A stretch of 13,459 nucleotides of DNA, taken from IMG/VR virus record IMGVR_UViG_2579778974_000005; one strand, written 5' to 3'. Source of the stretch: a virus (lineage: Duplodnaviria > Heunggongvirae > Uroviricota > Caudoviricetes). A program made the position numbers and the translations under genes. Below, piece by piece: positions 1 through 13,459 of this stretch; position 1 is the first letter of the stretch, and the number at the start of each line of letters is the position of its first letter. The notes beneath the pieces are model-generated. The model saw only the letters and a program-made list of their open reading frames with translations. It had not been told where the DNA came from and searched no databases.

Positions 1-279
1 ATGGCTGCGCTTGGGCAGTCAATCGGTGGTATATTCCCTTCTGATGAAATAGTCAAAGGCTCTATTAGCGGATATGTCTTCGAGCAATTTGAAATCGCCT
101 GTTACACCTCACTCTTAGCAGCAGCAAAAAATGCCGGTGATACAGCTTCAATTCCAACCATCGAAGCGATTTTAAATGAGGAAAAGCAAATGGCCGACTG
201 GCTGATTCAGCATATTCCGCAAACAACTGAGAAATTTTTAATTCGCTCTGAAACTGATGGCGTAGAAGCGAAGAAATAA
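1..279 (+). CDS. yciE: 3' end (92 codons) of a ferritin-like DUF892 family protein (YciE/YciF-type); the 5' end lies outside the window
   Basis: Open frame running from the window edge to TAA at 277..279. The translation (..FEQFEIACYTSLLAAAKNAGD..ILNEEKQMADWL..) has the C-terminal pattern of DUF892 proteins such as E. coli YciF. Assignment to yciE rather than a paralogue is recollection, not verified. Followed by a hairpin plus T-run. Confidence 0.6.
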   Translation: MAALGQSIGGIFPSDEIVKGSISGYVFEQFEIACYTSLLAAAKNAGDTASIPTIEAILNEEKQMADWLIQHIPQTTEKFLIRSETDGVEAKK

Positions 280-303
280 TACCCTTTATACCATGTCCTT
301 ATT

Positions 304-330
304 GACCCCGTATATTACGGGGTCGTTTTT
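304..330 (+). terminator. Rho-independent terminator of the yciE-like gene
   Basis: Inverted repeat GACCCCG (304..310) / CGGGGTC (318..324) with a 7-nt loop, followed directly by GTTTTT (325..330), 25 nt after the stop codon. Confidence 0.6.
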
Positions 331-767
331 GTGCGGAATTAAAAACGATATCCTGCTGAGAACATAAACACCCACGGATCGAGGCGTACGCTATCGTGTT
401 GCTGTGCACCGCCCAGTTTATAATTGGCGGTGGTATCGATATCCATGTACCACACTGGTAGGTTTCAAAAAACACAATAACCAATTGTATTTGAAGCAAA
501 AAACAAGACTTTGAGATGTTTTGTTGTACCTTTTTTTTATGTTTTTAACTGTCTGATTTTATTGAAATCTTTTTTAGTTTTGCAGAAGGAATTTTTTACT
601 TGATTGTAACTTTTTCGTTTTTTTGGGGCTAATTGACGCGCAATGCTGGGCGGGGAGCGCACAGCCAAAAAAACCGAAATTGACCGCTAATTACTGCCAA
701 TCATCATCGCTCTGATTGAGCGTAAATCATTCAGGTTATTCAGTTCTTCCTTCTGCTCTCGCTGACG

Positions 768-938
768 TCAATAAATCCCATCATTGCGATCAACCTCATC
801 CTTAACCATTGATGCGAGCAGTTCTTCCAGTTTCTGCGCTGACAGCTTTACCTGGTGATCTTCAGCATCTTCCCGGGCTATTGTGGTTCGCGCAGTGGCT
901 GATTTTGCTGACATCACCACAGGGGGCAGACGGACCAT
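768..938 (-). CDS. Hypothetical small protein (56 aa from the internal ATG at 936..938); doubtful
   Basis: Minus-strand ORF 768..1049 in the track. Its first 37 codons lie in the tfa-derived repeat and hairpin, so only the part from the ATG at 936..938 (GGAGG about 10 nt upstream) or 912..914 is plausible. No recognisable family. Confidence 0.2.
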   Translation of the reverse strand: MVRLPPVVMSAKSATARTTIAREDAEDHQVKLSAQKLEELLASMVKDEVDRNDGIY

Positions 939-1002
939 TGAACCATGGCCTCCGGAACAAATAAGGGCAAAAATAACAACCACTATCGAAAGCTCACAAA
1001 CT

Positions 1003-1172
1003 AACCGCAGCACGTTCCTGTATACGACGTGTCTGCGGCATAATCCCAATGATTACTCCCTGACAGGATTTGCAGGCCACTCAATATCAGGTGCAGTTGA
1101 TGTATCAACACGATTCAACAATACCCGATATTTATTCCATGCCTCCAGCAACGATCTTTCTTCCTCCGTTGC
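1003..1172. repeat. Left copy of a ~170-bp diverged direct repeat (tfa 3' end plus downstream hairpin)
   Basis: Aligns by eye with 2053..2221 in the same orientation, with scattered mismatches and a 1-nt length difference; roughly 85-90% identity, not computed. Confidence 0.8.
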
Positions 1173-1322
1173 GATTTCCAGATCTACAGCATCCTGCAGT
1201 GGCGCAATATACTCACTGAATTCCTGGATGTAGAACTGTGTGGTGACGGTCTTCCAGCCATTCGGCTCCTGCTGTATCGAAGCATACCAGGCTATTTCAA
1301 TATCGCTATGCTGCGGCAGCAT
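1053..1322 (-). CDS. tfa: Tail fibre assembly protein-like (Tfa C-terminal domain; short 89-aa form with a different N-terminus)
   Basis: C-terminus ..[51 protein letters not shown] matches the conserved C-terminal segment of lambda-type Tfa as I recall it. ATG at 1320..1322 preceded by AAGGGG. The N-terminal ~35 aa are unrelated to lambda Tfa. Confidence 0.65.
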
Positions 1323-1349
1323 TTAACCCCTTGTAATTCATCGCCATAA

Positions 1350-1378
1350 TTGATTTAATTCACAAATAAAACTATAAC
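1350..1378 (+). promoter_or_regulatory. Candidate sigma70 promoter upstream of the methyltransferase gene
   Basis: TTGATT (1350..1355), 17-nt spacer, TATAAC (1373..1378), ending immediately before the first ATG at 1379. Pattern match only. Confidence 0.3.
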
Positions 1379-2047
1379 ATGGTGAAATTAATGAAAAAAA
1401 ACACAGATGATGGGGCTAAAATTTACACACCACTTACCCTAAAGCTTTATGACTGGTGGGTTTTGGGAGTATCAAATTGGCTTGCATGGGGATGTCCTAC
1501 AAAGGAACACCTTCTTCCACACTTTCTGGAACATTTAGGTAACAACCATCTGGATATTGGTGTTGGAACTGGGTTTTACCTTACTCACGTACCTGAGAGT
1601 AGTCTGATATCTTTAATGGATTTGAACGAAGCTAGCCTGAACGCGGCATCTACAAGGGCTGGGGAATCAAAAATTAAACATAAAATTAGCCATGATGTTT
1701 TTGAACCTTATCCCGCGGCGTTACATGGTCAATTTGATTCCATTTCCATGTTTTACCTTCTTCACTGCCTGCCTGGAAATATAACTACAAAAAGCTGTGT
1801 AATACGCAATGCGGCGCAGGCCTTAACTGACGATGGAACTCTATACGGAGCCACAATTCTTGGCGATGGAGTTGTGCACAATAGCTTCGGTCAAAAACTG
1901 ATGCGCATTTACAATCAGAAAGGCATCTTTTCAAACACAAAAGATTCCGAAGAAGGCTTAACACATATACTCTCAGAGCATTTCGAGAATGTTAAAACCA
2001 AGGTTCAAGGTACTGTAGTAATGTTTTCCGCTTCAGGGAAAAAATAG
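1379..2047 (+). CDS. Class I SAM-dependent methyltransferase (222 aa; possible alternative start at ATG 1391)
   Basis: Complete ORF with the glycine-rich SAM-binding motif I DIGVGTGFY, preceded by a YDWW segment as in small Rossmann-fold methyltransferases. Visibly more AT-rich than the flanking tail genes. Opposite orientation to the flanking tfa fragments; I recall the same arrangement in E. coli K-12 prophage DLP12 (tfaD-ybcY-tfaX) but did not verify homology. Confidence 0.8.
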   Translation: MVKLMKKNTDDGAKIYTPLTLKLYDWWVLGVSNWLAWGCPTKEHLLPHFLEHLGNNHLDIGVGTGFYLTHVPESSLISLMDLNEASLNAASTRAGESKIKHKISHDVFEPYPAALHGQFDSISMFYLLHCLPGNITTKSCVIRNAAQALTDDGTLYGATILGDGVVHNSFGQKLMRIYNQKGIFSNTKDSEEGLTHILSEHFENVKTKVQGTVVMFSASGKK

Positions 2048-2052
2048 CATCC

Positions 2053-2221
2053 AACCGCAGCACGTTCTTGCTTAAGACGTGCTGCGGCATAATCCCAATG
2101 ATTACTCCCTGACAGAGTTCGTAGGCCACTCAATATCAGGTGCAGTTGATGTATCAACACGGTTCAGCAACACCCGATACTTTTTCCAGGCTTCCAGCAA
2201 CGAGTTTTCTTCCTCCGTTGC
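2053..2221. repeat. Right copy of the ~170-bp diverged direct repeat (tfa 3' end plus downstream hairpin)
   Basis: Partner of 1003..1172. Confidence 0.8.
2055..2087. terminator. Perfect 11-bp stem hairpin at the convergence of the methyltransferase gene and the tfa remnant; possible bidirectional terminator
   Basis: CCGCAGCACGT (2055..2065), 11-nt loop, ACGTGCTGCGG (2077..2087). No strong U-tract on either strand. An imperfect copy sits at 1005..1038. Confidence 0.35.
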
Positions 2222-2230
2222 ATATACAGC
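2102..2230 (-). pseudogene. tfa 3' remnant (last ~42 codons of a tail fibre assembly gene, no ATG)
   Basis: Minus-strand stop-to-stop frame translates to [42 protein letters not shown], bounded upstream by an in-frame TGA at 2231..2233. Absent from the ORF track because it is too short. Confidence 0.5.
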
Positions 2231-2240
2231 TCACCTTTTT

Positions 2241-2534
2241 TCACCCACGATTAACCAACAGCCAGACCAGCAGACACGCCACCACCGGCACAGCAAAATC
2301 CATCAGGCTTGCCACATCCCATGCACGTGTATCAAAACCGCCCCACCACGGCATATTCATTCGCTTGCCATGCCCGAACATTTCGATCCAGCGATATTCT
2401 GCCTGGGTGTGTTCACGCGCAATGAAGAACGTACAACCGGCTATCGCCCCGTAAGCCCAGTTCCCGGTAAAAAGACCAATCAGTAGCTGCGCAGCCACAG
2501 CACAAAGCGCATGAAGGAAAGGTGTTATATCCAT
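2241..2534 (-). CDS. Small membrane protein (97 aa, two predicted hydrophobic helices), function unknown
   Basis: ATG at 2532..2534 with AGGAGG 5 nt upstream, 10 nt after the stop of the preceding gene. Hydrophobic stretches FLHALCAVAAQLLIGLF..AIAGCTFFIA and LMDFAVPVVACLLVWLLV. Confidence 0.6.
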   Translation of the reverse strand: MDITPFLHALCAVAAQLLIGLFTGNWAYGAIAGCTFFIAREHTQAEYRWIEMFGHGKRMNMPWWGGFDTRAWDVASLMDFAVPVVACLLVWLLVNRG

Positions 2535-2544
2535 TACTCCTCCT

Positions 2545-3249
2545 TTATCCGATATCGCTTCGGGAAACGGATAACAACTTTAATTCTGACTCAAGTTCAT
2601 CAACTCTTTCAGTCAGCTTCTGGATATGGTGAATCAGTGGAACAACCAGACGTTCGTACATTACACCTTCGGCAACAAGGCCATTGCTGGAAATAGCTTC
2701 AGGAGCATCATCTTCGTTAGCTGGTCGCCAGTGTACAAACTGAGGGGCAATTTCTCCTACTTCCTCGGCAATCAATCCGTAGAATCCCCAGTCACGCCTG
2801 TCATTTTCGCATTGCGACCTGTACCACACAGGGCGCATCCTGAAAATGAGATCGGCGTGCTCTGAATCTATCGTCTCTACTGAATGTTTATAGCGAATAG
2901 ACGATGTTGACCGCAGTACAGACGAAATTGCAGGGTCAGGATTAAGATAAAGGTTTGCCGCCGCTGTAGTCGTGCCCAATCCCCACATATAAAACGCTTC
3001 ACGGCCAGTCAACGGGTAAAAATCTCCACCATAACGACCGCTTTCCAGATCGTTCACTTCCAGTTTGTTTTTCAGCTTATTATCAACTTCAGTTTTTGTG
3101 TATCTGGTGCTGATATCCTGCTTTGCACTGGTCATATCAGTCTGAAGCGTTGATACTTTTCCGTTAATTGAGGAAATATCTTCCTTAGTTTTACTGACAT
3201 CTCCCTTTAGCGTGGTGATATCTCCTGGAATTACTGTCGATGTAGCCAT
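2545..3249 (-). CDS. Short fibre-like protein: N-terminal coiled-coil plus C-terminal intramolecular chaperone (peptidase S74-type) domain (234 aa)
   Basis: ATG at 3247..3249 with GAGGGAG upstream. C-terminal region SSIRYKHSVETID..LIFRMRPVWY..WGFYGLIAEEVGEIAPQFV..GLVAEGVMYERLVVPLIHHIQKLTERVDELESELK fits the pattern of the tail fibre / endosialidase intramolecular chaperone domain as I recall it. Confidence 0.65.
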   Translation of the reverse strand: MATSTVIPGDITTLKGDVSKTKEDISSINGKVSTLQTDMTSAKQDISTRYTKTEVDNKLKNKLEVNDLESGRYGGDFYPLTGREAFYMWGLGTTTAAANLYLNPDPAISSVLRSTSSIRYKHSVETIDSEHADLIFRMRPVWYRSQCENDRRDWGFYGLIAEEVGEIAPQFVHWRPANEDDAPEAISSNGLVAEGVMYERLVVPLIHHIQKLTERVDELESELKLLSVSRSDIG

Positions 3250-3258
3250 TTGTCTCCC

Positions 3259-3540
3259 TCACATCCAGCCACGAAGTTGATGCTCAACAACAACCGCGTA
3301 TTTATCGAATATTGACGATTTTTTTACATCATTAATGATGCGCACGTTTACAAAATATCCGTCTTCCTTAACACATACCGGTTCGCCATCTTCAGTCAGT
3401 TCTCCGGTTTCTTTGTACACGTTACCTATCACGTCAATAAGAATATCATCCTGCATCGACTCGTCATCATAATAGCCAATACTCTCCATAAAGGCCGAAA
3501 AGTCGGCCCTGTCTGCAAATTTGAGTGTTAAATCTTTCAT
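3259..3540 (-). CDS. Small acidic hypothetical protein (93 aa); possible fibre chaperone or accessory factor
   Basis: ATG at 3538..3540 overlaps the stf stop (ATGA overlap), with a GGGGAGAG SD inside the stf 3' end. No recognisable family. Confidence 0.55.
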   Translation of the reverse strand: MKDLTLKFADRADFSAFMESIGYYDDESMQDDILIDVIGNVYKETGELTEDGEPVCVKEDGYFVNVRIINDVKKSSIFDKYAVVVEHQLRGWM

Positions 3541-5882
3541 TTAATACTCTCCCCCATTTGCGCATCAGTTAATTCTTTATGCCAGATACGCAGATTACGG
3601 ATATGACCAAAAAGATGATACTCCCCATTAGTGCCCTGCCCTCCAATTCGCAATACTGCCCGTGGAACAATTGAAGTCCATGTTGTTTTTGCCGCAACAG
3701 ATAATTCACCATTACATACGGCCTGAACATCTCCATCAGCGCCACAACGGAAGCCTGAAATGATTTTCCTCTGGGTTGTTGCCACATATTTATTACACCC
3801 TCCCATAGAAATAAAAGGAGAACCGGCATCAGAGAAATTATTACCACGGAATCCATGCGTGAACAGACCATTTTCCTGATAATCTTTAACATTAAAGATT
3901 AATGGTGATTTGCTGGGAGGGATATCCCAGTTTTTATTAACTTCAACAAGAGCACTGAATGGTAATCGGTGAATATTGTTTCTTACAGGTATTGTCACCA
4001 TGTCGCTGGAGCGAGTGCCAGGAGCCCCTTCAGTAATGATAAATGACGTCCTGTACGACCCAATCTCCGCCTGAGGCATCGCAATATCTAACGTAGAGCC
4101 ATTGGGGATAATACTGATTCCAGGCATCGCCAGGATTTCAAATCTTGAGCTGATTATCATTTCCGCATCTGCAAAAAGAGTGGCGGTAAACAACCACCAT
4201 TCACCGACTCTTTCTGCCGTCACCGTCACATTATTTCCATGAACAACATTTCCCGTAACAGGATCCAGAACTGCATCTGAATGAAAAACAAACGCACCAT
4301 TATCAGACATTTTTCCGAACCTTGCACGACACCGGGAATTATCACTTTTCGTCAGACACGATATCGTCGTATAAGAACCTGCCGGGCAGGTGTAAGCATC
4401 ATTCGTGTTTACAGCAATTGCCTGATATCCTTGTGCTGTCGGATTTTCATTAATAACAGTTATCCTTCCATAGTTAAACCCCTTATCACTGTCGAACGAC
4501 TCAACAGACACACTACCCGTGTTATTCCATGCTTCTGGTGTATTTGAATTTCTGAAATAGTTTGTTCTCTGTCCTTCAATCAGCAAACCTTCTCGTTCAA
4601 ATCGCGGTTCGTCAACTTCAGCAACGGTTAATACACCTGATTTATTAATGTATGTTGCACCTGATGCGCGTTTGAAGCTAACAACCTTATCGGATGGCAT
4701 TTTAATAACATCATCACCTACGGTTATTTGCTTATAACCAGGCGAAAAGCCAGCAAGCATATCCAGTGAATCGTTAAACGGTATCCACACATCAGGCAGT
4801 GGCTGTAAGACATATTTATACGGCTCTGCTGCCTGGCTTGCATACTCTCTGGCTGCATCCTCACTTGCTTTAGCTGCTGTCTGGCTTGCTGCCGATGCTT
4901 GCGCCGAGTTCGCCGCTGCAGTCTCGCTTGTCTTTGCATTGGTTTCACTGGTTTTTGCAGCTTTTTGACTGTTTGCTGATGCAGTGGCAGAAGCAGCCGC
5001 CGCACTTGCAGAACCAGCTGCAGCACTCTCGCTTTCGGCTGCTGCATCCTGACTGCTTTTCGCCGCAGTTTCGCTGGCTTTGGCATTTGTTTCGCTGGTC
5101 TTCGCTGCCGTCTGGCTGGACTTTGCGTTAGTTTCGCTCGTCTTCGCTGCTTTCTGGCTGTTAGCCGCAGCAGTTGCTGATCCAGCTGCTGCAGTCGCAG
5201 AACCGGCTGCCGCGCTCTCGCTTTCGGCTGCTGCATTCTGGCTATTTTTCGCCGCAGTTTCACTGGCTTTGGCATTCGTTTCGCTGGTTTTCGCTGCCGT
5301 CTGGCTGGACTTTGCGTTGGTTTCGCTCGTCTTTGCGGCTGTCTCGCTGTTTTTCGCGTTGGTTTCTGATTTTTTGGCTGCTGTCGCGGAGTTTGCCGAT
5401 GCAGTCTGCGAGGACGCTGCCGCCTGTGCGCTGTTAGCTGCATTCGTTTCTGAGGTTTTCGCCGCGTTCTTCGATGATGCCGCTGCAGTTTCGGATTTCT
5501 TTGCCGCCGCTGCGCTCTGAGAGGCGGCTTCGGCGTTGCGTGCCGCTTCTTCCACCATTGCCTCAAAACGACGCAATGCCTCCGGCATGACATCATCTTC
5601 CGTCATGGCACCGAGAAAATCATTCAGCGTACCTGGTCTGGAACCTTCATAGACGGTAATGGTTCCGGCATGTGAAGGCGGAAAACCTTCAACCAGCAGG
5701 GTGACGCTGTACTGGCCATGCTCAACATCCATGCTGTAACGCCCGGCTTCATCCGGATTTTCAGAGGCCACCGTGTTCACCAGTACCGTGGTGCTGTTAC
5801 GCTTTGCCTTCAGTTGAATAGTGCAGTTCTGTATTGGTTTTCCCGCACCATCTTTCAGCACACCTGAAATCTGTACTGCCAT
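3537..5882 (-). CDS. stf: Side tail fibre protein (Stf-like; 781 aa from the ATG at 5880..5882)
   Basis: N-terminus MAVQISGVLKDGAGKPIQNCTIQLKA..GRYSMDVE..FPPSHAGTITVYE matches the lambda Stf N-terminal domain from memory. It is followed by a long Ala/Ser/Thr-rich repetitive shaft and a distinct C-terminal region ending in a LamG/concanavalin-like motif (..RIGGQGTNGEYHLFGHIRNLRIWHKELTDAQM). GGAG SD before the ATG; the track's upstream GTG start is less likely. Confidence 0.85.
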   Translation of the reverse strand: MAVQISGVLKDGAGKPIQNCTIQLKAKRNSTTVLVNTVASENPDEAGRYSMDVEHGQYSVTLLVEGFPPSHAGTITVYEGSRPGTLNDFLGAMTEDDVMPEALRRFEAMVEEAARNAEAASQSAAAAKKSETAAASSKNAAKTSETNAANSAQAAASSQTASANSATAAKKSETNAKNSETAAKTSETNAKSSQTAAKTSETNAKASETAAKNSQNAAAESESAAAGSATAAAGSATAAANSQKAAKTSETNAKSSQTAAKTSETNAKASETAAKSSQDAAAESESAAAGSASAAAASATASANSQKAAKTSETNAKTSETAAANSAQASAASQTAAKASEDAAREYASQAAEPYKYVLQPLPDVWIPFNDSLDMLAGFSPGYKQITVGDDVIKMPSDKVVSFKRASGATYINKSGVLTVAEVDEPRFEREGLLIEGQRTNYFRNSNTPEAWNNTGSVSVESFDSDKGFNYGRITVINENPTAQGYQAIAVNTNDAYTCPAGSYTTISCLTKSDNSRCRARFGKMSDNGAFVFHSDAVLDPVTGNVVHGNNVTVTAERVGEWWLFTATLFADAEMIISSRFEILAMPGISIIPNGSTLDIAMPQAEIGSYRTSFIITEGAPGTRSSDMVTIPVRNNIHRLPFSALVEVNKNWDIPPSKSPLIFNVKDYQENGLFTHGFRGNNFSDAGSPFISMGGCNKYVATTQRKIISGFRCGADGDVQAVCNGELSVAAKTTWTSIVPRAVLRIGGQGTNGEYHLFGHIRNLRIWHKELTDAQMGESIK
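4850..5430. repeat. Tandem coding repeats (~189-bp unit, about 2.5-3 copies) in the stf shaft
   Basis: Near-identical blocks starting near 5041 and 5230, with a related copy near 4860-5040. Protein repeat ..KAAKTSETNAKSSQTAAKTSETNAKASETAAK.S..AAAESESAAAGSA.. seen twice. Confidence 0.8.
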
Positions 5883-5893
5883 ATTCACTCCAC

Positions 5894-5921
5894 AAATAAA
5901 AAAGGCGCCATTTCTGGCGCC
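5894..5921 (-). terminator. Rho-independent terminator downstream of J, immediately upstream of the stf ribosome-binding site
   Basis: On the minus strand: GGCGCCA-GAAA-TGGCGCC stem-loop (plus 5904..5921) followed by TTTTTTATTT (plus 5894..5903), about 20 nt after the J stop. Confidence 0.6.
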
Positions 5922-5940
5922 CGTATCTGGGTTATAAAAT

Positions 5941-8900
5941 TCAGCTAATCATGATGCCTGCAGTGGCTTTCTTCATCACCACAACCAGCAAATCGCTGAT
6001 ACTTGCTGTGGGATACCAGCCATTTACCAGCCATGCCGATACAGAAAATTCCAGTGTCATTACACCACTGCCTGCAGGCATATCAATAACACCCGTATAT
6101 ATCAGCGTATTATCCAGAGCCGTTCGGTTATAAATTTCAGCACCGTTTTTTCGTACTATCAGACGGCATGAGGAGTAGATATCAGTATGATCTTGCTCAT
6201 GTTTAGCGCCACTGAATGCCACCGCCGGAATAACAATTTGCCGGTCAAACGGCTGATCGTCATAAACCCTGACGGTAATGGTCCCTGATGGCCACCGCTC
6301 CGGTGCACGGGAGTCCCGGGGGAAAGCTTTGCCCACTGTTTTAACGAGATCGCCTTCAATCTGGTTCGCGGACAGTTTTCCCAGAACCCGGCAGTTCTCG
6401 TTAATCGTGACGTTGTTGAGCGTCCCGGAGTTCGCATTCACGTTACCGCTAATATCGGCATTTTTCGCCGTCAGCCGCCCGTCCGGTGTCAGGGAAAATG
6501 CCGGAGGATTACCGCCGCTGGTAATGGTGGGAGCCGTCAGATATTTCAGGAACACTTCGTTCATGAATATCTGATCGCCCTGACCAACAAACATCGGCTT
6601 TGTGTTGCCATTCGCAGGATTAATCATCGCAATCCTGTCCGCCGCCAGCAGCACCTGACTCTGCATACCGTCAGGGGTATTCTCAATACCGGCACCAATA
6701 CCCGCGATATAAAGGCGTCCGTCCTGCATCTGCTGCAGCTTCACAGCCCACATGCTGTTCAGGTTATTATTTGTATCAACCTGAACCTTCTGTATCTGCT
6801 GGATTGCCGCACTCTGGTCTTCCAGTTTCTTATTGACGGTCTGCGTGATTTCATTACTGACATCCGTGATGGACGTTCTGATTTCCGCCAGGTCAGGCGC
6901 AAGCTGACCGTTATCAATCTGCGTCCACAACTCCTGAGCCAGATGGGTTTTCCCTATCTCTCCTTTGAAAAAATTCAGATAGCCGGATGCATCATCACTC
7001 GGCTGGCCAACAGCCTCCACGAATGCCGATTTGCCAACGGTGTTCACACTGCGGATGTAAAAATAATAATCATGGCCCGGTTTGATATTGATACTGGCGG
7101 CTATCCAGTACAGCGCCGTGCCAAGATAGCGTGCTGTGGTTTCAACCTGCCTGATATCCGCAATCCGCTTTTCCGAGAACCAGAACTCAAACTGTACCGT
7201 CGGATCATAAACCGCAAGATGCGGCGTGGCGGTTATCTGAAAATACCCCGGTGTCAGCTCAATCTGCGACGGCGCTGCCGGTGCGGCAATCCGGAACGAT
7301 ACCGACGCCGGCTCGCCCTGCTGCCCCCACGCATTTACTGCCCGGACTGTCAGCCTGTAGTTCCCCAGAGCCAGTTGTGTGAAGCGGTAAGTGGTTTCCG
7401 TCGTCCGGGCCGTGCTGACCAGTCGCTCACGGCCGTCATCCGCTGCCACGGTCAGGCGAAGCAGGAAGCTCACGCCCTTCACCACCTTCGGCGTGTCCCA
7501 GCGGGCCAGCACCTGGTATTCCCCGCTGTCTGCGGTGACTTCTGCGGTCAGGTGCTGCACCGCTGGCGGCGTGACACCATTTACCGTGCCGCTCTGGTCG
7601 CCGTCAAAGTGCGCCCCGTTATCCACGATGGCCTCTTTTTCCGGTACATGCTGCACGGCGGTGATGGCATACGTGCCGTCGTCGTTCTCACGGATACTCA
7701 CGCAGCGGAACAGGCGCTGGCGCAACGTCGGCAGCTTCAGCCCCCATACGCTGTATTCAGCAACGCCGTCAGGAACACGGCTCACTTTCACCTTCACGCC
7801 GTCGGTGACGGACTGAACCTCCACGCTGACCGGACTCCCCTGCCCGTCAACCAGGCTTATCAGCGTGGTGCCGGAAGATGGCAGCGTGATTTCACGGTCG
7901 AGCGTCAGCGTCCGGGTCTGGCTGTTTACCGCCAGCACGCGCCCGCCGGTGCGGATACCGGCATAGTCATCATCGCAGATTTCAATGACATCGCCCGGTA
8001 CATGGCGAAGCCCTTCGGCACCCACGCTGAAGTCCACGGTCTGCGTTTCCAGCAGCTCCGTTTTAATCAGCCACAGCCCGGCGCGGTGTGCCTGCCCCCG
8101 GCTGGTACAGCCAAAGGCATCCATCTTCGTGACGTTACGACCGTAACGGAGAATGGCCTGCGTATCTTCAACAAGCTCTGTCGCCGTCTCCCAGCCGTTG
8201 TCCGGGTCAATCCAGTTCACCTCAACGGCATTATGGCGGTCCTTCAGGGCGCTGAAGCTGTAGCGGAACGGCGCGCCATCATCCGGCATCACCACATTAC
8301 TGCGGTTATAGGTCCACACCTTATCTGATGGTCGGTCCTGCACGAACGTCAGCGTCTGCCCGTTCCATACCGGCATACAGCGCATCGCCGAGCAGAAATC
8401 ACTGAGCACATCCCACGCCTTACGCTGCGTGGTCAGGTAGGCATTACAGGTGATGCGCGGCTCCGTGCCGCCAAAACCGTCCGGCACTGACTGGTCGCAG
8501 TACTGGCCGATGACATACAGCGCCCATTTATCCACATCCGCCGCACCAAGACGTTTCCCCATGCCGTAGCGCGGGTGGGTCAGCATATCCCACAGACACC
8601 AGGCCGGGTTGTTGCTGTATGCCGGCTTAAACGTTCCGTCCCAGATACCGCTGTATTGCCGCGTCTGCGGGTTATAGTTCGACGGCACCTGCAGAATGCG
8701 CCCGCGAAGATGATAATTACGGCTCACCTGCTGGCTGCCGAACTGCTCCGAGTCCACCTGCACGCCGACCAGTGCCGTGTTCGGGTAGCACTGTTTCACA
8801 TCGATGATTTCGGTGTATGACGACCAGAGCGTTTTGTTCTGCAGCTGGTCTGTGGTGCTGTCCGGCGTCATCCTGCGCATCCGGATGTTGAACGGGCGCG

Positions 8901-9420
8901 GCGGCAGGTTATCCACCACCACCGAGGCCAGATACTGCGAGGTGGTTTTGCCTTTAATGGTGATGTCTTTTTCCGTCACCCAGCCACCGTTACGCTGTAT
9001 CTGAACCAGCAGGCGGACTTCCGACGGATTCCGGTCCCCCTTTGAGGTGGTTTCCACCAGTGCCTGCACACCGAAGGTCAAGCGCAGACGGTCGATGTTT
9101 GCAGACGTGATGGTCCGGGTAATCGGCGTGTCGTACTTCACTTCCGTACCCAGCACCGTCTCGGAGCCGGAGGATTCAAATCCCTCCGGCGGTGTCTGCT
9201 CCTGCTCACCTGCCCGGAACACCACCGTGACGCCGGAGATATTGGTATTCCCCTCACTGTCCAGCACTGGCGTACTGTTCAGCAGCACGCTTTTTAATCC
9301 ATCCACCGGACCTTCAATCGGCCCTTCGCTGATGGCATCAATCACACTCAGCAACTGCGTGGACTTCAGGTTGTCCTTCGCTTCGCGCGGGGTATGCCCC
9401 TTACTGCTGCCTTTACCCAT
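5941..9420 (-). CDS. J: Tail tip host-specificity protein J (central tail fibre), 1159 aa, with a C-terminal region that differs from lambda J
   Basis: N-terminal ~790 aa ([24 protein letters not shown]..) match lambda J as recalled. The C-terminal ~350 aa differ from the lambda LamB-binding end as recalled. Confidence 0.95.
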
Positions 9421-9480
9421 TCCTCACGCTCCATAAACGACAAAACCGCCCGCAGGCGGTTTCACATAAAACATTTTGCA

Positions 9481-10152
9481 TCAGCGACCAATCACCACAA
9501 CCTGACCACCGTCCCCTTCGTCTGCCGTGCTGATCTCCTGAGAAACCACCCGTGACCCCACGCGCATTTCACCGTACAGAACGGGCAGAACATTGCTCTG
9601 GGCAACCATGTTATCCAGGGAGGAGAAATAGGTGTTCTGTTTGCCGTTATCCGTTGTCTGTGTACGGGGAGTTCTGGCTTTCGGTGCCAGCATCTGCGCC
9701 ACACCACCGAGCACCATACTGGCACCGAGAGAAAACAGGATGCCGGTCATACCACCGGCCCCAATGGCTGCCCCCCATGCTGCAAGGGTGGCTCCGGCGG
9801 TAAAGAATGATCCGGCAATGGCGGCAGCCCCCAGGACAATCTGGAATACGCCCCCTGACTTGGCCCCGGCGACTCTGGGAACAATATGAATCACAGCGCC
9901 ATCAGGCAGAGTCTCATGTAACTGCGCCGTTAACCCGGACGTGCTGACGTCCCGCCCGGCAATCCGTACCTGATACCAGCCGTCGCTCAGTTTCTGACGA
10001 AACGCCGGGAGCTGTGTGGCCAGTGCCCGGATGGCTTCAGCCCCCGTTTTCACACGAAGGTCGATGCGGCGACCAAATCGTTGTAAATCCCCGTAAAGGC
10101 AGATGCGCGCCATGCCCGGTGACGCCAGAGGGAGTGTGTGCGTCGCTGCCAT
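9481..10152 (-). CDS. I: Tail tip assembly protein I (223 aa)
   Basis: Translation MAATHTLPLASPGMARICLYGDLQRFGRRIDLRV.. matches lambda gpI from memory. Overlaps the 3' end of K by ~100 nt, as in lambda. Confidence 0.95.
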   Translation of the reverse strand: MAATHTLPLASPGMARICLYGDLQRFGRRIDLRVKTGAEAIRALATQLPAFRQKLSDGWYQVRIAGRDVSTSGLTAQLHETLPDGAVIHIVPRVAGAKSGGVFQIVLGAAAIAGSFFTAGATLAAWGAAIGAGGMTGILFSLGASMVLGGVAQMLAPKARTPRTQTTDNGKQNTYFSSLDNMVAQSNVLPVLYGEMRVGSRVVSQEISTADEGDGGQVVVIGR

Positions 10153-10793
10153 TTGTCGGTGTACCTCTCTCGTTTGCTCAGTTGTTCAGGAATATGGTGC
10201 AGCAGCTCGCCGTCGCCGCAGTAAATTGCGGCGTGATTCGGCACCGATGAACCAAAACAGCACAGCAGCACATCGCCCGGCTGTGCCGCTGACAACGGCA
10301 CCTGATACAGCCCCGTCGCCTCCAGATTATCCAGATAGAGATTCTGGCAGTTACGCCACCAGTCATCCTCACGATGAAAGTCCGGCATCTCAATCCCCGC
10401 CAGATGATAAGCATCCCGGAACAGCGTGTAACAGTCCGTCACCCCGTGCTCAAAGCACCGCCCGGTAAGATGCGGCACACAGCGGAACTTGTGAATCGCC
10501 CCCCGGCAGACCAGCCACCACGGCAAATCACTCTGCACCTGCAGCCGCCGGTCGGTCTCACTCAGCCAGGGCAGACCACCGGGGTGGCTGTGGACCAGCG
10601 CCACAATCTCACCCTGCATTTCTGCCTGCAGCCAGTCTTCCGGCGACATACGGAAATAATCCTCCGGCTCACCGGAGATATTCACGCCGGGGAAATATCT
10701 TTCCCCCTCCGGCGCTCTCACCACGAAGCCGCACGACTCCGCTGGCGCACATCGCCGGGCGTGCGCCAGAATCGCTGATTCTGTCTCTGTCAT
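10050..10793 (-). CDS. K: Tail tip assembly protein K (JAB/MPN metalloprotease-like plus NlpC/P60 domains), 247 aa from the ATG at 10791..10793
   Basis: JAMM-like motif HSHPGG..SETD and an NlpC/P60-like Cys/His pair (..VTDCYTLF.., ..NHAAIY..). The ATG at 10791..10793 lies 4 nt after the L stop. The classical 199-aa lambda annotation would start at the ATG at 10647..10649; the track's longer ORF (to 10835) overlaps L. Confidence 0.9.
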   Translation of the reverse strand: MTETESAILAHARRCAPAESCGFVVRAPEGERYFPGVNISGEPEDYFRMSPEDWLQAEMQGEIVALVHSHPGGLPWLSETDRRLQVQSDLPWWLVCRGAIHKFRCVPHLTGRCFEHGVTDCYTLFRDAYHLAGIEMPDFHREDDWWRNCQNLYLDNLEATGLYQVPLSAAQPGDVLLCCFGSSVPNHAAIYCGDGELLHHIPEQLSKRERYTDKWQRRTHSLWRHRAWRASAFTGIYNDLVAASTFV

Positions 10794-10797
10794 GGGA

Positions 10798-11496
10798 TTA
10801 CTGCGAAAGTTTGTTAATGGAAAGGAAGCCGCCAAAATTGCCGACGTTATTGCGAAACTTACAGCCGCTCAGGCATTTGCTGCATTTATCCTTCGTGATA
10901 TCGGACGTCGGCTGGTCATATTCATCCGCGACTGCCGGACCGTGATAACCGCACTCATCACCGCGATAGGTCCAGGTGCAGGTGTTGGCCAGCATGATAC
11001 GCCCCGGAAAAACAGCGCCGTCCGTTTCCGTCGGCGTGGACAGTACAAAAGAGGCACTGACCGCGCTCAGTTCGCTGCACTGCTCGATGCGCCAGCGGCT
11101 GATCACCTCCTGCTCCGGATCGGCGTCACTGTTTCCGTTGACGAAGTTCACCGCATCCAGAAAACGGGCGTAAACCTTACGCCGGACCACCGTTCCGCCG
11201 ACCAGACTCTGCAGATCTTCCGCCATCCCGGTGACCATACCGTACAGGTTAGAAACCGTCAGCGTGGGGCGCGTACTGGTGCCTTTGCCATTCAGTTCAA
11301 AACCACTCCCCTGAATGGGATACGGCTGATACTGTCGCCCCTGCCAGGTGACCGGCTCACCTTTTTCGTTCTGCTCATTACAGAAAAAATAACGTTCTCC
11401 ACCGACCTCTGTCAGATCGATTTCCCAGAGCACCACGCTGGCCGACTGCTCCGCACGGGTGCATTCATTCAGTGTTTCCTGCCGGATATCCTGCAT
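10798..11496 (-). CDS. L: Minor tail protein L (232 aa)
   Basis: MQDIRQETLNECTRAEQSASVVLWEIDL.. matches lambda gpL from memory. ATGA start/stop overlap with M. Confidence 0.95.
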   Translation of the reverse strand: MQDIRQETLNECTRAEQSASVVLWEIDLTEVGGERYFFCNEQNEKGEPVTWQGRQYQPYPIQGSGFELNGKGTSTRPTLTVSNLYGMVTGMAEDLQSLVGGTVVRRKVYARFLDAVNFVNGNSDADPEQEVISRWRIEQCSELSAVSASFVLSTPTETDGAVFPGRIMLANTCTWTYRGDECGYHGPAVADEYDQPTSDITKDKCSKCLSGCKFRNNVGNFGGFLSINKLSQ

Positions 11497-11825
11497 CAGT
11501 TCACCACCTGTTTAAACTCTGCGCTGAACTCAACACGCAACATACTGACCTGCGACGACCATTTTGCGCAGGTCACCTTTATCTGCCTGTAGCCATAAGG
11601 CGGCGTCCACAGAAAGGCCTTCCAGCCCCCGTGCTCAGCCAGAAACGACTCCAGCGCCGTGGCCTCCTCACGGGAGACAGACAGCGTCACGCTGTACGTT
11701 TTCAGGTCAGCGTTCAGCCCGGCAGGCGCACGCTGGGAATAGCCATCACCAAAGCGCACCTCCCTGACGGAAGGAGCCGATGTCACATCCATCCCGGGTT
11801 TCACTTTCCAGCGGAAGGTTTTCAT
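11496..11825 (-). CDS. M: Minor tail protein M (109 aa)
   Basis: MKTFRWKVKPGMDV..SQRAPAGLNA.LKTYSVTLSV matches lambda gpM from memory. ATGA overlap with the H stop. Confidence 0.95.
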   Translation of the reverse strand: MKTFRWKVKPGMDVTSAPSVREVRFGDGYSQRAPAGLNADLKTYSVTLSVSREEATALESFLAEHGGWKAFLWTPPYGYRQIKVTCAKWSSQVSMLRVEFSAEFKQVVN

Positions 11826-13372
11826 CGTCCACCTCCGGAGAACAGACCACCATCGCGCATCTGTGCCTGGATTTCATCACGGGCACCCTTGCGGGCCATG
11901 TCATACACTGCCTTCAGAGCAGCCGGACCTATCTGCCCGTTCGTGCCGTCGTTGTTAATCACCACATGGTTATTCTGCTCAAACGTCCCGGACGCCTGCG
12001 ACCGGCTGTCTGCCATGCTGCCCGGTGTACCGACATAACCGCCGGTGGCATAGCCGCGCATCAGCCGGTAAAGATTCCCCACGCCAATCCGGCTGGTTGC
12101 CTCCTTTGTGAAGACAAATTCACCACGGTGAACAATCCCCGCTGGCTCATATTTGCCGCCGGTTCCCGTAAATCCTCCGGTTGCAAAATGGAATTTCGCC
12201 GCAGCGGCCTGAATGGCTGTACCGCCTGACGCGGATGCGCCGCCACCAACAGCCCCGCCAATGGCGCTGCCGATACTCCCGACAATCCCCACCATTGCCT
12301 GCTTAAGCAGAATTTCTGTCATCATGGACAGCACGGAACGGGTGAAGCTGCGCCAGTTCTGCTCACTGCCGGTCAGCATCGCCGCCATATTCTGCGCAAT
12401 ACCATCAAAGGTCTGCGCGGCTGCACTTTTAACCTGCGACATACTGTCCGTGGCGCTCTCTTCCCACTCACTCCAGCCGGACTTCAGGCCTGCCATCCAG
12501 CTCCCGCGAAGCTGGTCTTCAGCCGCCCAGGTCTTTTTCTGCTCTGACATGACGTTATTCAGCGCCAGAGGATTATCGCCATACTGTTCCTTCAGGCGCT
12601 GTTCTGTGGCTTCCCGCGCTGCCTGCCGGTCAGTCAGCCCCCGGCTTTTCGCATCAATGGCGGTCCGTTTTGCCCGTTGCTGCTGTGCGAATTTATCCGC
12701 CTGCTGCGCCAGCGCGTTCAGGCGCTCCTGATACGTAACCTTGTCGCCAAGTGCAGCCAGCTGGCGTTTATACTCCAGCGTCTCATCTTTATGCGCCAGC
12801 AGGGATTTCTCCTGTGCAGACAGCTGGCGACGTTGCGCCGCCTCCTCCAGTACCGCGAACTGACTCTCCGCCTTCCACAAATCCCGGCGCTGCTGGCTGA
12901 TTTTCTCATTTGCTCCGGCATGCTTCTCCAGCGTCCGGAGTTCAGCCTGAAGCGTCAGCAGGGCAGCATGAGCACTGTCTTCCTGACGATCGCCCGCAGA
13001 CACCTTCACGCCGGACTGTTTCGGCTTTTTCAGCGTCGCTTCATAGTCCTTTTTCGCCGCCGCCATCAGCGTGTTGTAATCTGCCTGCAGAATTTTCCCG
13101 TCCTTCAGTGCCTTGTTCAGTTCTTCCTGACGGGCGGTATATTTCTCCAGCGGCGTCTGCAGCCGTTCGTAAGCCTTCTGCGCCTCTTCGGTATATTTCA
13201 GCCGTGACGCTTCAGTATCGCTCTGCTGCTGCGCATTTGTGTCCTGTTGACTCTGCTGTTCAGCCTTCTTTCGGGCGGCTTCAAGCGCAAGACGGGCCTT
13301 TTCACGATCATCCCAGTAACGCGCCCGCGCTTCATCGTTAACAAAATAATCATCCTTGCGCAGACTCCAGAT
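11822..13372 (-). CDS. H: Tail tape measure protein H, C-terminal ~515 codons only; the 5' portion is missing and replaced at 13373 by a fragment of gene I
   Basis: From ..IWSLRKDDYFVNDEARARYWDDREKARLALEAARKKAEQQ.. to the C-terminal ..MRDGGLFSGGGR the translation matches lambda gpH as recalled. The residues upstream of IW in the track ORF are an out-of-frame reading of the duplicated gene I fragment. Confidence 0.85.
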   Translation of the reverse strand: MWSLRKDDYFVNDEARARYWDDREKARLALEAARKKAEQQSQQDTNAQQQSDTEASRLKYTEEAQKAYERLQTPLEKYTARQEELNKALKDGKILQADYNTLMAAAKKDYEATLKKPKQSGVKVSAGDRQEDSAHAALLTLQAELRTLEKHAGANEKISQQRRDLWKAESQFAVLEEAAQRRQLSAQEKSLLAHKDETLEYKRQLAALGDKVTYQERLNALAQQADKFAQQQRAKRTAIDAKSRGLTDRQAAREATEQRLKEQYGDNPLALNNVMSEQKKTWAAEDQLRGSWMAGLKSGWSEWEESATDSMSQVKSAAAQTFDGIAQNMAAMLTGSEQNWRSFTRSVLSMMTEILLKQAMVGIVGSIGSAIGGAVGGGASASGGTAIQAAAAKFHFATGGFTGTGGKYEPAGIVHRGEFVFTKEATSRIGVGNLYRLMRGYATGGYVGTPGSMADSRSQASGTFEQNNHVVINNDGTNGQIGPAALKAVYDMARKGARDEIQAQMRDGGLFSGGGR

Positions 13373-13459
13373 CCACCGAGCACCATACTGGCACCGAGAG
13401 AAAACAGGATGCCGGTCATACCACCGGCCCCAATGGCTGCCCCCCATGCTGCAAGGGTG
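13373..13459. repeat. Exact 87-bp direct copy of gene I internal sequence (9704..9790), abutting truncated H and running off the window edge
   Basis: 13373..13459 is identical base-for-base to 9704..9790 (offset 3669 bp); the flanking bases 13372 and 9703 differ. Confidence 0.9.

Follow-up and report, generated by a model that had tools for sequence, protein, structure and literature searches.

An undamaged DLP12-type methyltransferase cassette bracketed by two tfa 3' ends at the cargo end of a lambda-like Escherichia coli prophage

The question raised by this locus is how a low-GC (guanine plus cytosine) methyltransferase gene came to sit between two diverged pieces of tfa, the tail fibre assembly gene, on the strand opposite to them, and whether it is a working gene. 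The window, by which we mean the whole stretch of 13,459 nucleotides (nt) analysed here (IMG/VR record IMGVR_UViG_2579778974_000005), is the tail and cargo end of a lambda-like Escherichia coli prophage whose tail genes lie on the minus strand (Table 1). Taken as a whole, the locus is in our judgement probably explained as such a cargo end carrying an intact, selectively maintained methyltransferase cassette of the YbcY family, of the type known from the E. coli K-12 prophage DLP12 and shuffled via tfa 3' ends. The locus is already annotated and very common, and its architecture adds little, being the annotated DLP12 locus in undamaged form; the incremental new details are a chimeric left open reading frame (ORF), the boundaries of the methyltransferase unit, a 170-bp repeat specific to this lineage and a hairpin shared with lambda.

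An earlier note made from the letters of this DNA had pointed to the gene order tfaD-ybcY-tfaX of DLP12, and this is borne out by blastn, which aligns the core cassette to K-12 at 97.1% identity over 1146 nt and, from position 1098 onward, to phages at 98.6-99.4%. Genes, order and orientation are the same and the hairpin and promoter spacer are shared, but ybcY of K-12 is a pseudogene in which a 2-nt deletion removes the start codon (ATG 1391), whereas the gene in the window is intact, as the note had held. The probable start codon is directly followed by an A8 homopolymer (1393-1400), which in the K-12 allele reads A7 with the G of the ATG lost, and this start allele occurs in 2 of 54 sampled copies. 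An intact protein of 218 amino acids (aa) is encoded by 51 of the 54 full-length copies sampled, and methyltransferase DNA is present in 3836 of 5426 complete E. coli genomes (~71%), at 1-4 places each, which makes K-12, with its dead copy, an atypical reference and ybcY a cheap, well-defined target for functional work. K-12 further differs in having a full-length tfaD upstream, where the window retains only 39 codons behind the S74 fibre module; in the diverged 3' end of its tfaX, which has a premature stop and no hairpin, where the window has a canonical tfa end with the hairpin; and in being followed by appY-ompT, where the window continues into DUF4376'-ompW'-yciE. The core also occurs in viable lambdoid phages, among them 2G7b, ev243 (genus Nesevirus) and PhiR26_1, in which the order is J-lom-stf, then either tfa or the S74 module with a tfa remnant, then hairpin, methyltransferase and tfaX; the remnant junction of 2G7b is identical to that of the window, and in all three phages the cassette is followed by an alpha/beta hydrolase gene, ompT and int, a part that is absent from the window. 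The full arrangement of the window recurs in 488 genomes, and 502 share its junction with the 97-aa ORF; E. coli MS6198 is collinear with window 1-13372 at 99.95% identity and identical to it over 700-2600.

Table 1. Features of the window discussed in the text, with positions counted from its first letter.
Feature	Position	Strand	Basis or remark
Core cassette (tfaD 3' end, ybcY, tfaX 5' part)	1076..2221	.	Common to K-12 DLP12, 2G7b, ev243 and PhiR26_1
Minimal methyltransferase unit (5' part of divergent 80-aa gene, spacer, methyltransferase)	1236..2059	+	825 bp
Class I SAM-dependent methyltransferase, YbcY family, 218 aa	1391..2047	+	ORF open from ATG 1379 (222 aa)
Left repeat copy	1003..1172	-	tfa 3' end, stop, hairpin, flank
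Left hairpin, GCCGCAG(A)CACGT...ACGTGCTGCGG	1005..1039	-	Pattern match in L001 mapped to the window
89-aa chimeric ORF (tfaX-like)	1053..1322	-	Two-source fusion
Right repeat copy	2053..2221	-	tfa 3' end, stop, hairpin
Right hairpin	2055..2088	-	Between convergent tfa remnant and methyltransferase; candidate bidirectional terminator, module boundary
Right tfa remnant	2102..2221	-	Last 39 codons and stop, without start codon
Divergent promoter spacer (56 nt)	1323..1378	+	Candidate sigma-70 promoters
Candidate promoter TTGATT-17-TATAAC	1350-1355, 1373-1378	+	Hexamer pair listed for ybcY in K-12 genomic SELEX
Candidate promoter TTAACC-16-CATAAT	1323-1328, 1345-1350		Consensus scan
S74 side-tail-fibre module	2241..5888	-	Pfam, PHROGs; incoming module that truncated tfa
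Hydrophobic 97-aa ORF, phrog_1443 (function unknown)	2241-2534	-	Part of fibre module
234-aa fibre protein with Peptidase_S74 intramolecular chaperone	2545-3249	-	Pfam, PHROGs
93-aa ORF, phrog_1361 (function unknown)	3259-3540	-	Part of fibre module
stf	3537-5888	-	Part of S74 fibre module
J	5941-9420	-	Tail gene
H (partial), M, L, K, I		-	Tail genes, listed from high to low coordinates, before J and stf
DUF4376 domain-containing pseudogene remnant	687..956	-	PGAP annotation of identical MS6198 locus; N-terminus missing
Truncated ompW	339-464		Abuts prophage
yciE	1-279		Abuts prophage

The AT-rich gene between the repeats does encode an S-adenosylmethionine (SAM)-dependent methyltransferase, as the note had claimed. 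Four Pfam families score over their gathering cut-offs (Methyltransf_12, 37.5 bits against 30; Methyltransf_23, 28.7 against 27; Methyltransf_25, 27.8 against 27; Methyltransf_11, 24.7 against 21.2), and phrog_2132, a family of unknown function, is matched over residues 1-218 of 218 (E = 3.7e-155). ATG 1391 is the probable true start, since homologues and phrog_2132 begin there. Motif I (D59-x-G61-x-G63-x-G65), D81 and D106 are invariant or nearly so across 40 homologues, and an AlphaFold2 model built from these reached a predicted local distance difference test (pLDDT) score of 90.6; the class I seven-stranded alpha/beta methyltransferase fold is thus predicted with confidence, and the profile search that the note had named as its check came out in favour of the fold. 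The family has invariant motifs of its own (YDWWVL, HLDIGVGTGYY, FYLLHCLPG and YNxKGIFxN) and comprises 426 clusters at 50% identity with E <= 1e-30, including Acidobacteria and lichen fungi; it is both large and distinct. Source names of the relatives are generic only ('UbiE', 'class I SAM-dependent'), and the extra regions of fused relatives held no Pfam domain save RCC1 repeats in one fungal protein. Sequence and profile searches of the PDB gave juvenile-hormone acid methyltransferase and UbiG as best matches (E = 1e-5 to 1e-3); identity to these two, UbiE/Coq5, RebM, Rv0560c and XrdM is only 10-21%, with no shared substrate-binding signature established. The papers found that mention ybcY do so only in passing, and none of those found assigns it a function.

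Composition and constraint both bear on how the gene is maintained. Its GC content is 40.9% (35.6% at third codon positions, GC3) against 56-60% (GC3 62-71%) for the tail genes J to H, a comparison that the note had proposed; the swapped-in fibre genes are likewise low (40-48%). The ratio of nonsynonymous to synonymous substitution rates (dN/dS) is 0.11-0.22 against mobile alleles of 79-89% identity and, together with the high share of intact copies, this argues that the gene is functional and under purifying selection. In the plaque-forming phage Ayreon, all that is left of the methyltransferase ORF is its final 36 nt, which are joined to the spacer, and the tfa remnant and hairpin are still present; this clean deletion indicates that the gene is dispensable for the phage. 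The moron concept (Hendrix, Juhala) has lom and bor as lambdoid examples, and cargo loci downstream of tail-fibre genes are known from prophages of enterohaemorrhagic E. coli (EHEC). Like these, the window holds an extra gene of foreign composition between conserved phage modules, dispensable for the phage, and its low GC, the Ayreon deletion and the conserved promoter hexamers and H-NS site described below fit the moron character that the note had proposed. Lambdoid morons have their own promoter, and the methyltransferase has a candidate one; a difference is that its product is a predicted cytoplasmic enzyme rather than an envelope protein or effector. At the same position, phage 2B8 carries genes for type III secretion system effectors and a tfa fragment. 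A literature search on exchangeable effector loci and on tfaX/tfaD yielded nothing usable.

The brackets around this gene were described in the note as diverged direct repeats of ~170 bp, each encoding the Tfa C-terminus on the minus strand, and this description holds. The repeat search paired 1033-1172 with 2082-2221 (140 nt, 91%) and 1003-1031 with 2053-2081 (86%); joined into a single gapped match, the two copies are 89.4% identical across 170 nt (one indel, E = 1.9e-56). Both encode the Tfa C-terminus (...VRE) and continue for ~50 nt beyond the stop, including a hairpin with a 12-bp stem. The right copy is a start-less remnant, as had been stated, with an in-frame TGA at 2231-2233 beside it. 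For the left copy, which the note had called an intact 89-aa ORF, the claim stands for the open frame and fails for a tfa gene: the Pfam Caudo_TAP match (E = 6e-25) covers residues 31-86 only, corresponding to profile positions 75-130 of 131, so that the conserved C-terminal domain is present and the N-terminal fibre-binding domain (profile positions 1-74; full Tfa ~190 aa) is absent, and other Tfa proteins align to it only from residue 27-32 onward. Codons 1 to ~35-37 (1212-1322) match a Citrobacter 80-aa ORF and phrog_3893, and codons ~38-89 (1053-1211) are the Tfa C-terminal domain. Because of this partial match and the N-terminus shared with the Citrobacter ORF, the left ORF is a chimera and not an intact tfa: the start of an unrelated 80-aa gene runs into a Tfa C-terminus, with the join between ~1209 and 1236. 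In MS6198, both copies are annotated by RefSeq and the Prokaryotic Genome Annotation Pipeline (PGAP) as 'tail fiber assembly protein, incomplete, missing N-terminus', that is, as partial pseudogenes.

The two copies have different histories. Window 1003-1097 (the last 15 codons, hairpin and flank) differs from the tfaX end of K-12 and the phages and belongs to another tfa lineage, which places a breakpoint inside the left copy at ~1076-1098 relative to them; in other phages this left-type flank is also found behind full-length tfa genes, and it resembles lambda 24161-24230. In K-12 and the sequenced phages the left copy is without the hairpin and the repeat spans just 75-100 bp at 85-88% identity, and therefore the 170-bp repeat is a derived feature in the lineage of the 488-502 genomes mentioned above. 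The right copy continues into a full-length tfa in K-12 and PhiR26_1, and in the window, 2G7b and ev243 its homology ends at 2221/2222, abutting the 97-aa ORF of the S74 module. This end marks it as a scar: the right copy is what was left of the phage's own tfa after most of that gene and the stf C-terminus had given way to a self-chaperoning S74 fibre module. Both copies, on this junction evidence, arose through illegitimate joins. The sequence shows the 97-aa ORF and the tfa remnant to be in different frames, which ruled out a read-through fusion between them.

How the cassette moves can be read from the tfa ends themselves. Three markers were scored on sampled tfa ends: whether the last codons read PTNP or PANP, which type of hairpin is present, and whether methyltransferase or left-type flank lies beyond it. 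All four combinations of PTNP/PANP with the sequence beyond the hairpin occur, recombinant hairpin-flank joints exist too, and tfa-hairpin-left-type-flank joints are also found without the methyltransferase; these patterns and the breakpoints show that recombination within the tfa 3' end and hairpin has been frequent. The tfa 3' end is a shared stretch of homologous DNA because it encodes the conserved C-terminal chaperone domain, the conserved functional core of Tfa proteins (PMC9608196), and lambda has been found to pick up a marker from prophage stf/tfa homology (tfaQ::cat, stfR::cat) in a Red/RecA-dependent manner at ~2e-6 (PMC3945230). The note's proposal of exchange by homologous recombination between tfa 3' ends is thus strengthened by the left-copy breakpoint, the four marker combinations and the lambda experiment, with the caveat that both copies stem from illegitimate joins. 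As a separate observation, one IMG/VR contig (L078) has two joints of tfa', hairpin and methyltransferase end (7248 and 12606), 5358 bp apart, which bracket methyltransferase, tfaX, hydrolase and ompT, so that the cassette or its boundary can be iterated. The idea that this contig represents a forerunner of the left copy was rejected, since the third tfa' on it leads to another methyltransferase end and not to the left-type flank.

The limits of the methyltransferase unit itself are given by Citrobacter, in which three loci (L014-L016) match the 825-nt unit at 91.5% identity, with homology ending exactly at 1236 and 2059 and neither flank containing tfa; in one of them (L014) the divergent partner ORF is intact, 80 aa long and of the phrog_3893 type. 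Stand-alone chromosomal homologues of 55-70% identity occur in Salmonella, Enterobacter, Yersinia, Erwinia and a Pasteurellaceae genome, and alleles of 79-89% identity are located in other islands. On account of both, the phage copy looks like a captured host-type gene. Esterases or alpha/beta hydrolases that are not homologous to one another adjoin the homologues in 4-5 of 8 contexts (TAP-like hydrolase, Abhydrolase_1, tannase, COesterase and GDSL autotransporter; L010 1614-3098, L004 9584-10414, L017 3115-4869, L143 3281-4813 and L141 7170-9173). Conserved neighbours as a clue to function were set aside, since the families differ and the phage hydrolase has no similarity to the tannase, and were kept as a weak lead: taken post hoc with a carboxyl methyltransferase as best PDB match, the esterase neighbours hint at methyl-ester chemistry.

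The hairpin that closes each tfa end folds stably (-19 to -28 kcal/mol, z = -3.4 to -5.6). The left copy gave -24.1 kcal/mol (z = -3.4); the right, which begins 8 nt after the methyltransferase stop, gave -28.5 and -23.9 kcal/mol (z = -4.3 and -5.6). When 17 distinct variants are compared, pairing is preserved in 97.5% of cells. A compensatory C-G to A-U change is seen at one pair; at five pairs the substitution affects a single side, mostly without loss of pairing, and one of these five has two unpaired variants as well. The covariation score was reached by 4 of 500 shuffles, and the sequences are closely related, so covariation support is modest. Where this hairpin stands, other tfa lineages carry canonical terminators. 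Lambda has the same hairpin twice: a first copy after the tfa stop (22572-22606), in which a C-G pair of the E. coli prophage copies is changed to A-T in compensatory fashion, and a second (24161-24195) on the far side of ea47, a gene on the opposite strand. Since the two copies bracket ea47, the lambda layout of hairpin, convergent cargo gene and hairpin is the same as that of the window, but the cargo is ea47 rather than the methyltransferase and the second hairpin is without a preceding tfa fragment. On the other side of the gene, the spacer holds candidate promoters: for K-12, Shimada et al. reported by genomic SELEX (systematic evolution of ligands by exponential enrichment) an RpoD RNA-polymerase site for ybcY, TTGATT-17-TATAAC, and an H-NS site in the ybcY/tfaX spacer (PMC3946193), and the sequence of both the hexamers and the H-NS site is conserved in the window.

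These findings can be assembled into one scheme. The 825-bp unit combines the methyltransferase gene, its own upstream spacer, which contains promoter-like hexamers, and the first part of the divergent 80-aa gene; it lies in convergent orientation to the tail operon, directly behind the tfa stop and the conserved hairpin. The left tfaX-like piece is a fusion of an old tfa 3' end with the 80-aa gene that, in this lineage, later recombined with another tfa 3' end and its hairpin, and the right piece was left behind at the S74 replacement. If the tfa 3' end is near-identical DNA in most lambdoid (and P2/Mu-type) phages, as we suppose, one homologous crossover in either copy, by Red or RecA, would connect the methyltransferase to a different left arm (tail fibres) or right arm (hydrolase-ompT-int or chromosome junction), and a 97-99% identical core in many contexts would be the consequence. 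In the lysogen, the gene would be transcribed from its own sigma-70 promoter, subject to H-NS, with the hairpin insulating it from convergent late transcription, and the enzyme would methylate a cytoplasmic small molecule, perhaps on a carboxyl or hydroxyl group, and not DNA. Read in this way, the locus illustrates how the tfa 3' end and hairpin may serve as a shared crossover point that reshuffles tail-fibre modules and cargo genes among lambdoid phages, which is relevant to predicting host range and the spread of cargo.

Several points weigh against this scheme. Movement of the core and swapping of the flanks fit the data alike. The hairpin is an inferred terminator or insulator, given that no U-tract directly follows the stem (it is weak or displaced, with none on the plus strand) and that the consensus scan called no terminator. 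The SELEX hexamers put the candidate transcription start just ~6 nt before ATG 1391. Searches of the PDB, NCBIfam and PADLOC gave nothing specific for substrate or role. In IMG/VR, methyltransferase-linked tfa ends are full length in at least 21 cases and truncated in at least 28, counts which rest on the matches listed and on selection by an exact 17-mer.

Among the rival explanations, those concerned with the repeats are decided by their junctions. Invertible tail-fibre segments duplicate tfa/stf ends, and one could take the repeats, which do bracket a gene, for the arms of a Gin/Cin/Pin-type fibre switch, the more readily as phage P1 is among the tfa matches, or else for a target-site duplication. 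We give either idea next to no credence: these 170-bp repeats are in direct orientation and have diverged by 11%, which with their differing and identifiable junction partners also upholds the note's view that they are no recent target-site duplication; there is no transposase or invertase in the window and no invertase in the annotated locus; and K-12 and the phages have a far shorter repeat. Both models are effectively refuted by the junction anatomy. The left ORF might alternatively be a functional 'mini-Tfa', a C-terminal oligomerisation domain that aids or regulates fibre assembly. It is open, it recurs as phrog_2341 (88 aa) and, among the matches listed, it is 89 aa long in 22 of 32 left-type copies, and the domain that it retains is the Tfa core. 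Its N-terminal third, however, comes from an unrelated gene, the fibre-binding domain is missing, the K-12 tfaX stops after 61 aa, the ORF is split in 2G7b and a pseudogene per PGAP, and the resident fibre has its own S74 chaperone; we regard such a function as improbable. No better is the prospect that the tfa-derived segments persist as small RNAs ending at the hairpin. Rfam IS009 (RF02111) matches 1096-1299 (-) with 112.5 bits (E = 1e-26) and 2145-2243 (-) with 69.1 bits, the hairpin (2056-2087, -) is the 3' end of the Rfam CssrB model (RF02799), and a ~180-nt CssrB transcript was seen on a northern blot of Shigella flexneri, its 3' end being set by a terminator prediction with this hairpin (PMC3071730). 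Both IS009 matches nevertheless fall under the Rfam gathering score of 117, the Tfa C-terminal domain explains the conservation, and the two RNA families appear to have been built on tfa remnants and their hairpin.

The remaining rival concerns the enzyme, which could act on a macromolecule (DNA, RNA or protein) in anti-restriction, epigenetic marking or translational tuning. We consider this unlikely, if somewhat less so than the mini-Tfa or the small RNAs. Neither a (D/N/S)PP(Y/F/W) nor a PCQ motif occurs in the sequence or in its invariant columns, the 218-aa protein consists of one domain, has an isoelectric point (pI) of 6.6 and lacks any target-recognition or RNA-binding domain, and no DNA methyltransferase family was matched in Pfam, NCBIfam or PADLOC. 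For want of these motifs and of any extra domain, and with that pI, a DNA methyltransferase is very unlikely, and a DNA-modifying or defence role was dropped as a candidate. The best PDB matches, to juvenile-hormone acid methyltransferase and UbiG, and the homologues, which are stand-alone and chromosomal with no restriction-enzyme partner, speak against a macromolecule as well; a small molecule is most likely the substrate, as far as sequence can tell. Beyond the preferred scheme of an intact YbcY cassette shuffled via tfa 3' ends, one may speculate that the hairpin is more than a terminator, namely a dedicated module boundary or recombination joint bracketing a cargo slot, filled by ea47 in lambda and by YbcY here, and that YbcY is a selected lysogenic-conversion enzyme, possibly a carboxyl methyltransferase working with the esterases that recur beside its homologues on a host metabolite or xenobiotic. 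We hold this extension to be unlikely.

The surroundings of the cassette are those of an E. coli prophage. Between it and the chromosome lies the DUF4376 remnant, whose translation has an internal stop, followed by the ompW'/yciE junction at window 1-464, which suggests integration in or beside ompW; yciE of MS6198 is annotated as frameshifted. In phages 2G7b and ev243, too, the S74-chaperone fibre module comes with the phrog_1443 97-aa and phrog_1361 93-aa ORFs. At the far end, window 13373-13459 is an exact direct copy of 9704-9790 (87 nt of tail gene I) and is not collinear with MS6198, where the tape-measure gene goes on; the copy creates an artificial fusion at the start of the ORF at 11822-13447 and is probably a chimeric contig end or an assembly artefact. 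Within stf, positions 4850-5500 (-) hold long Ala/Ser/Thr-rich repeats with a 21-nt periodicity, including a 189-nt unit repeated at 81% identity, and this region could vary in length.

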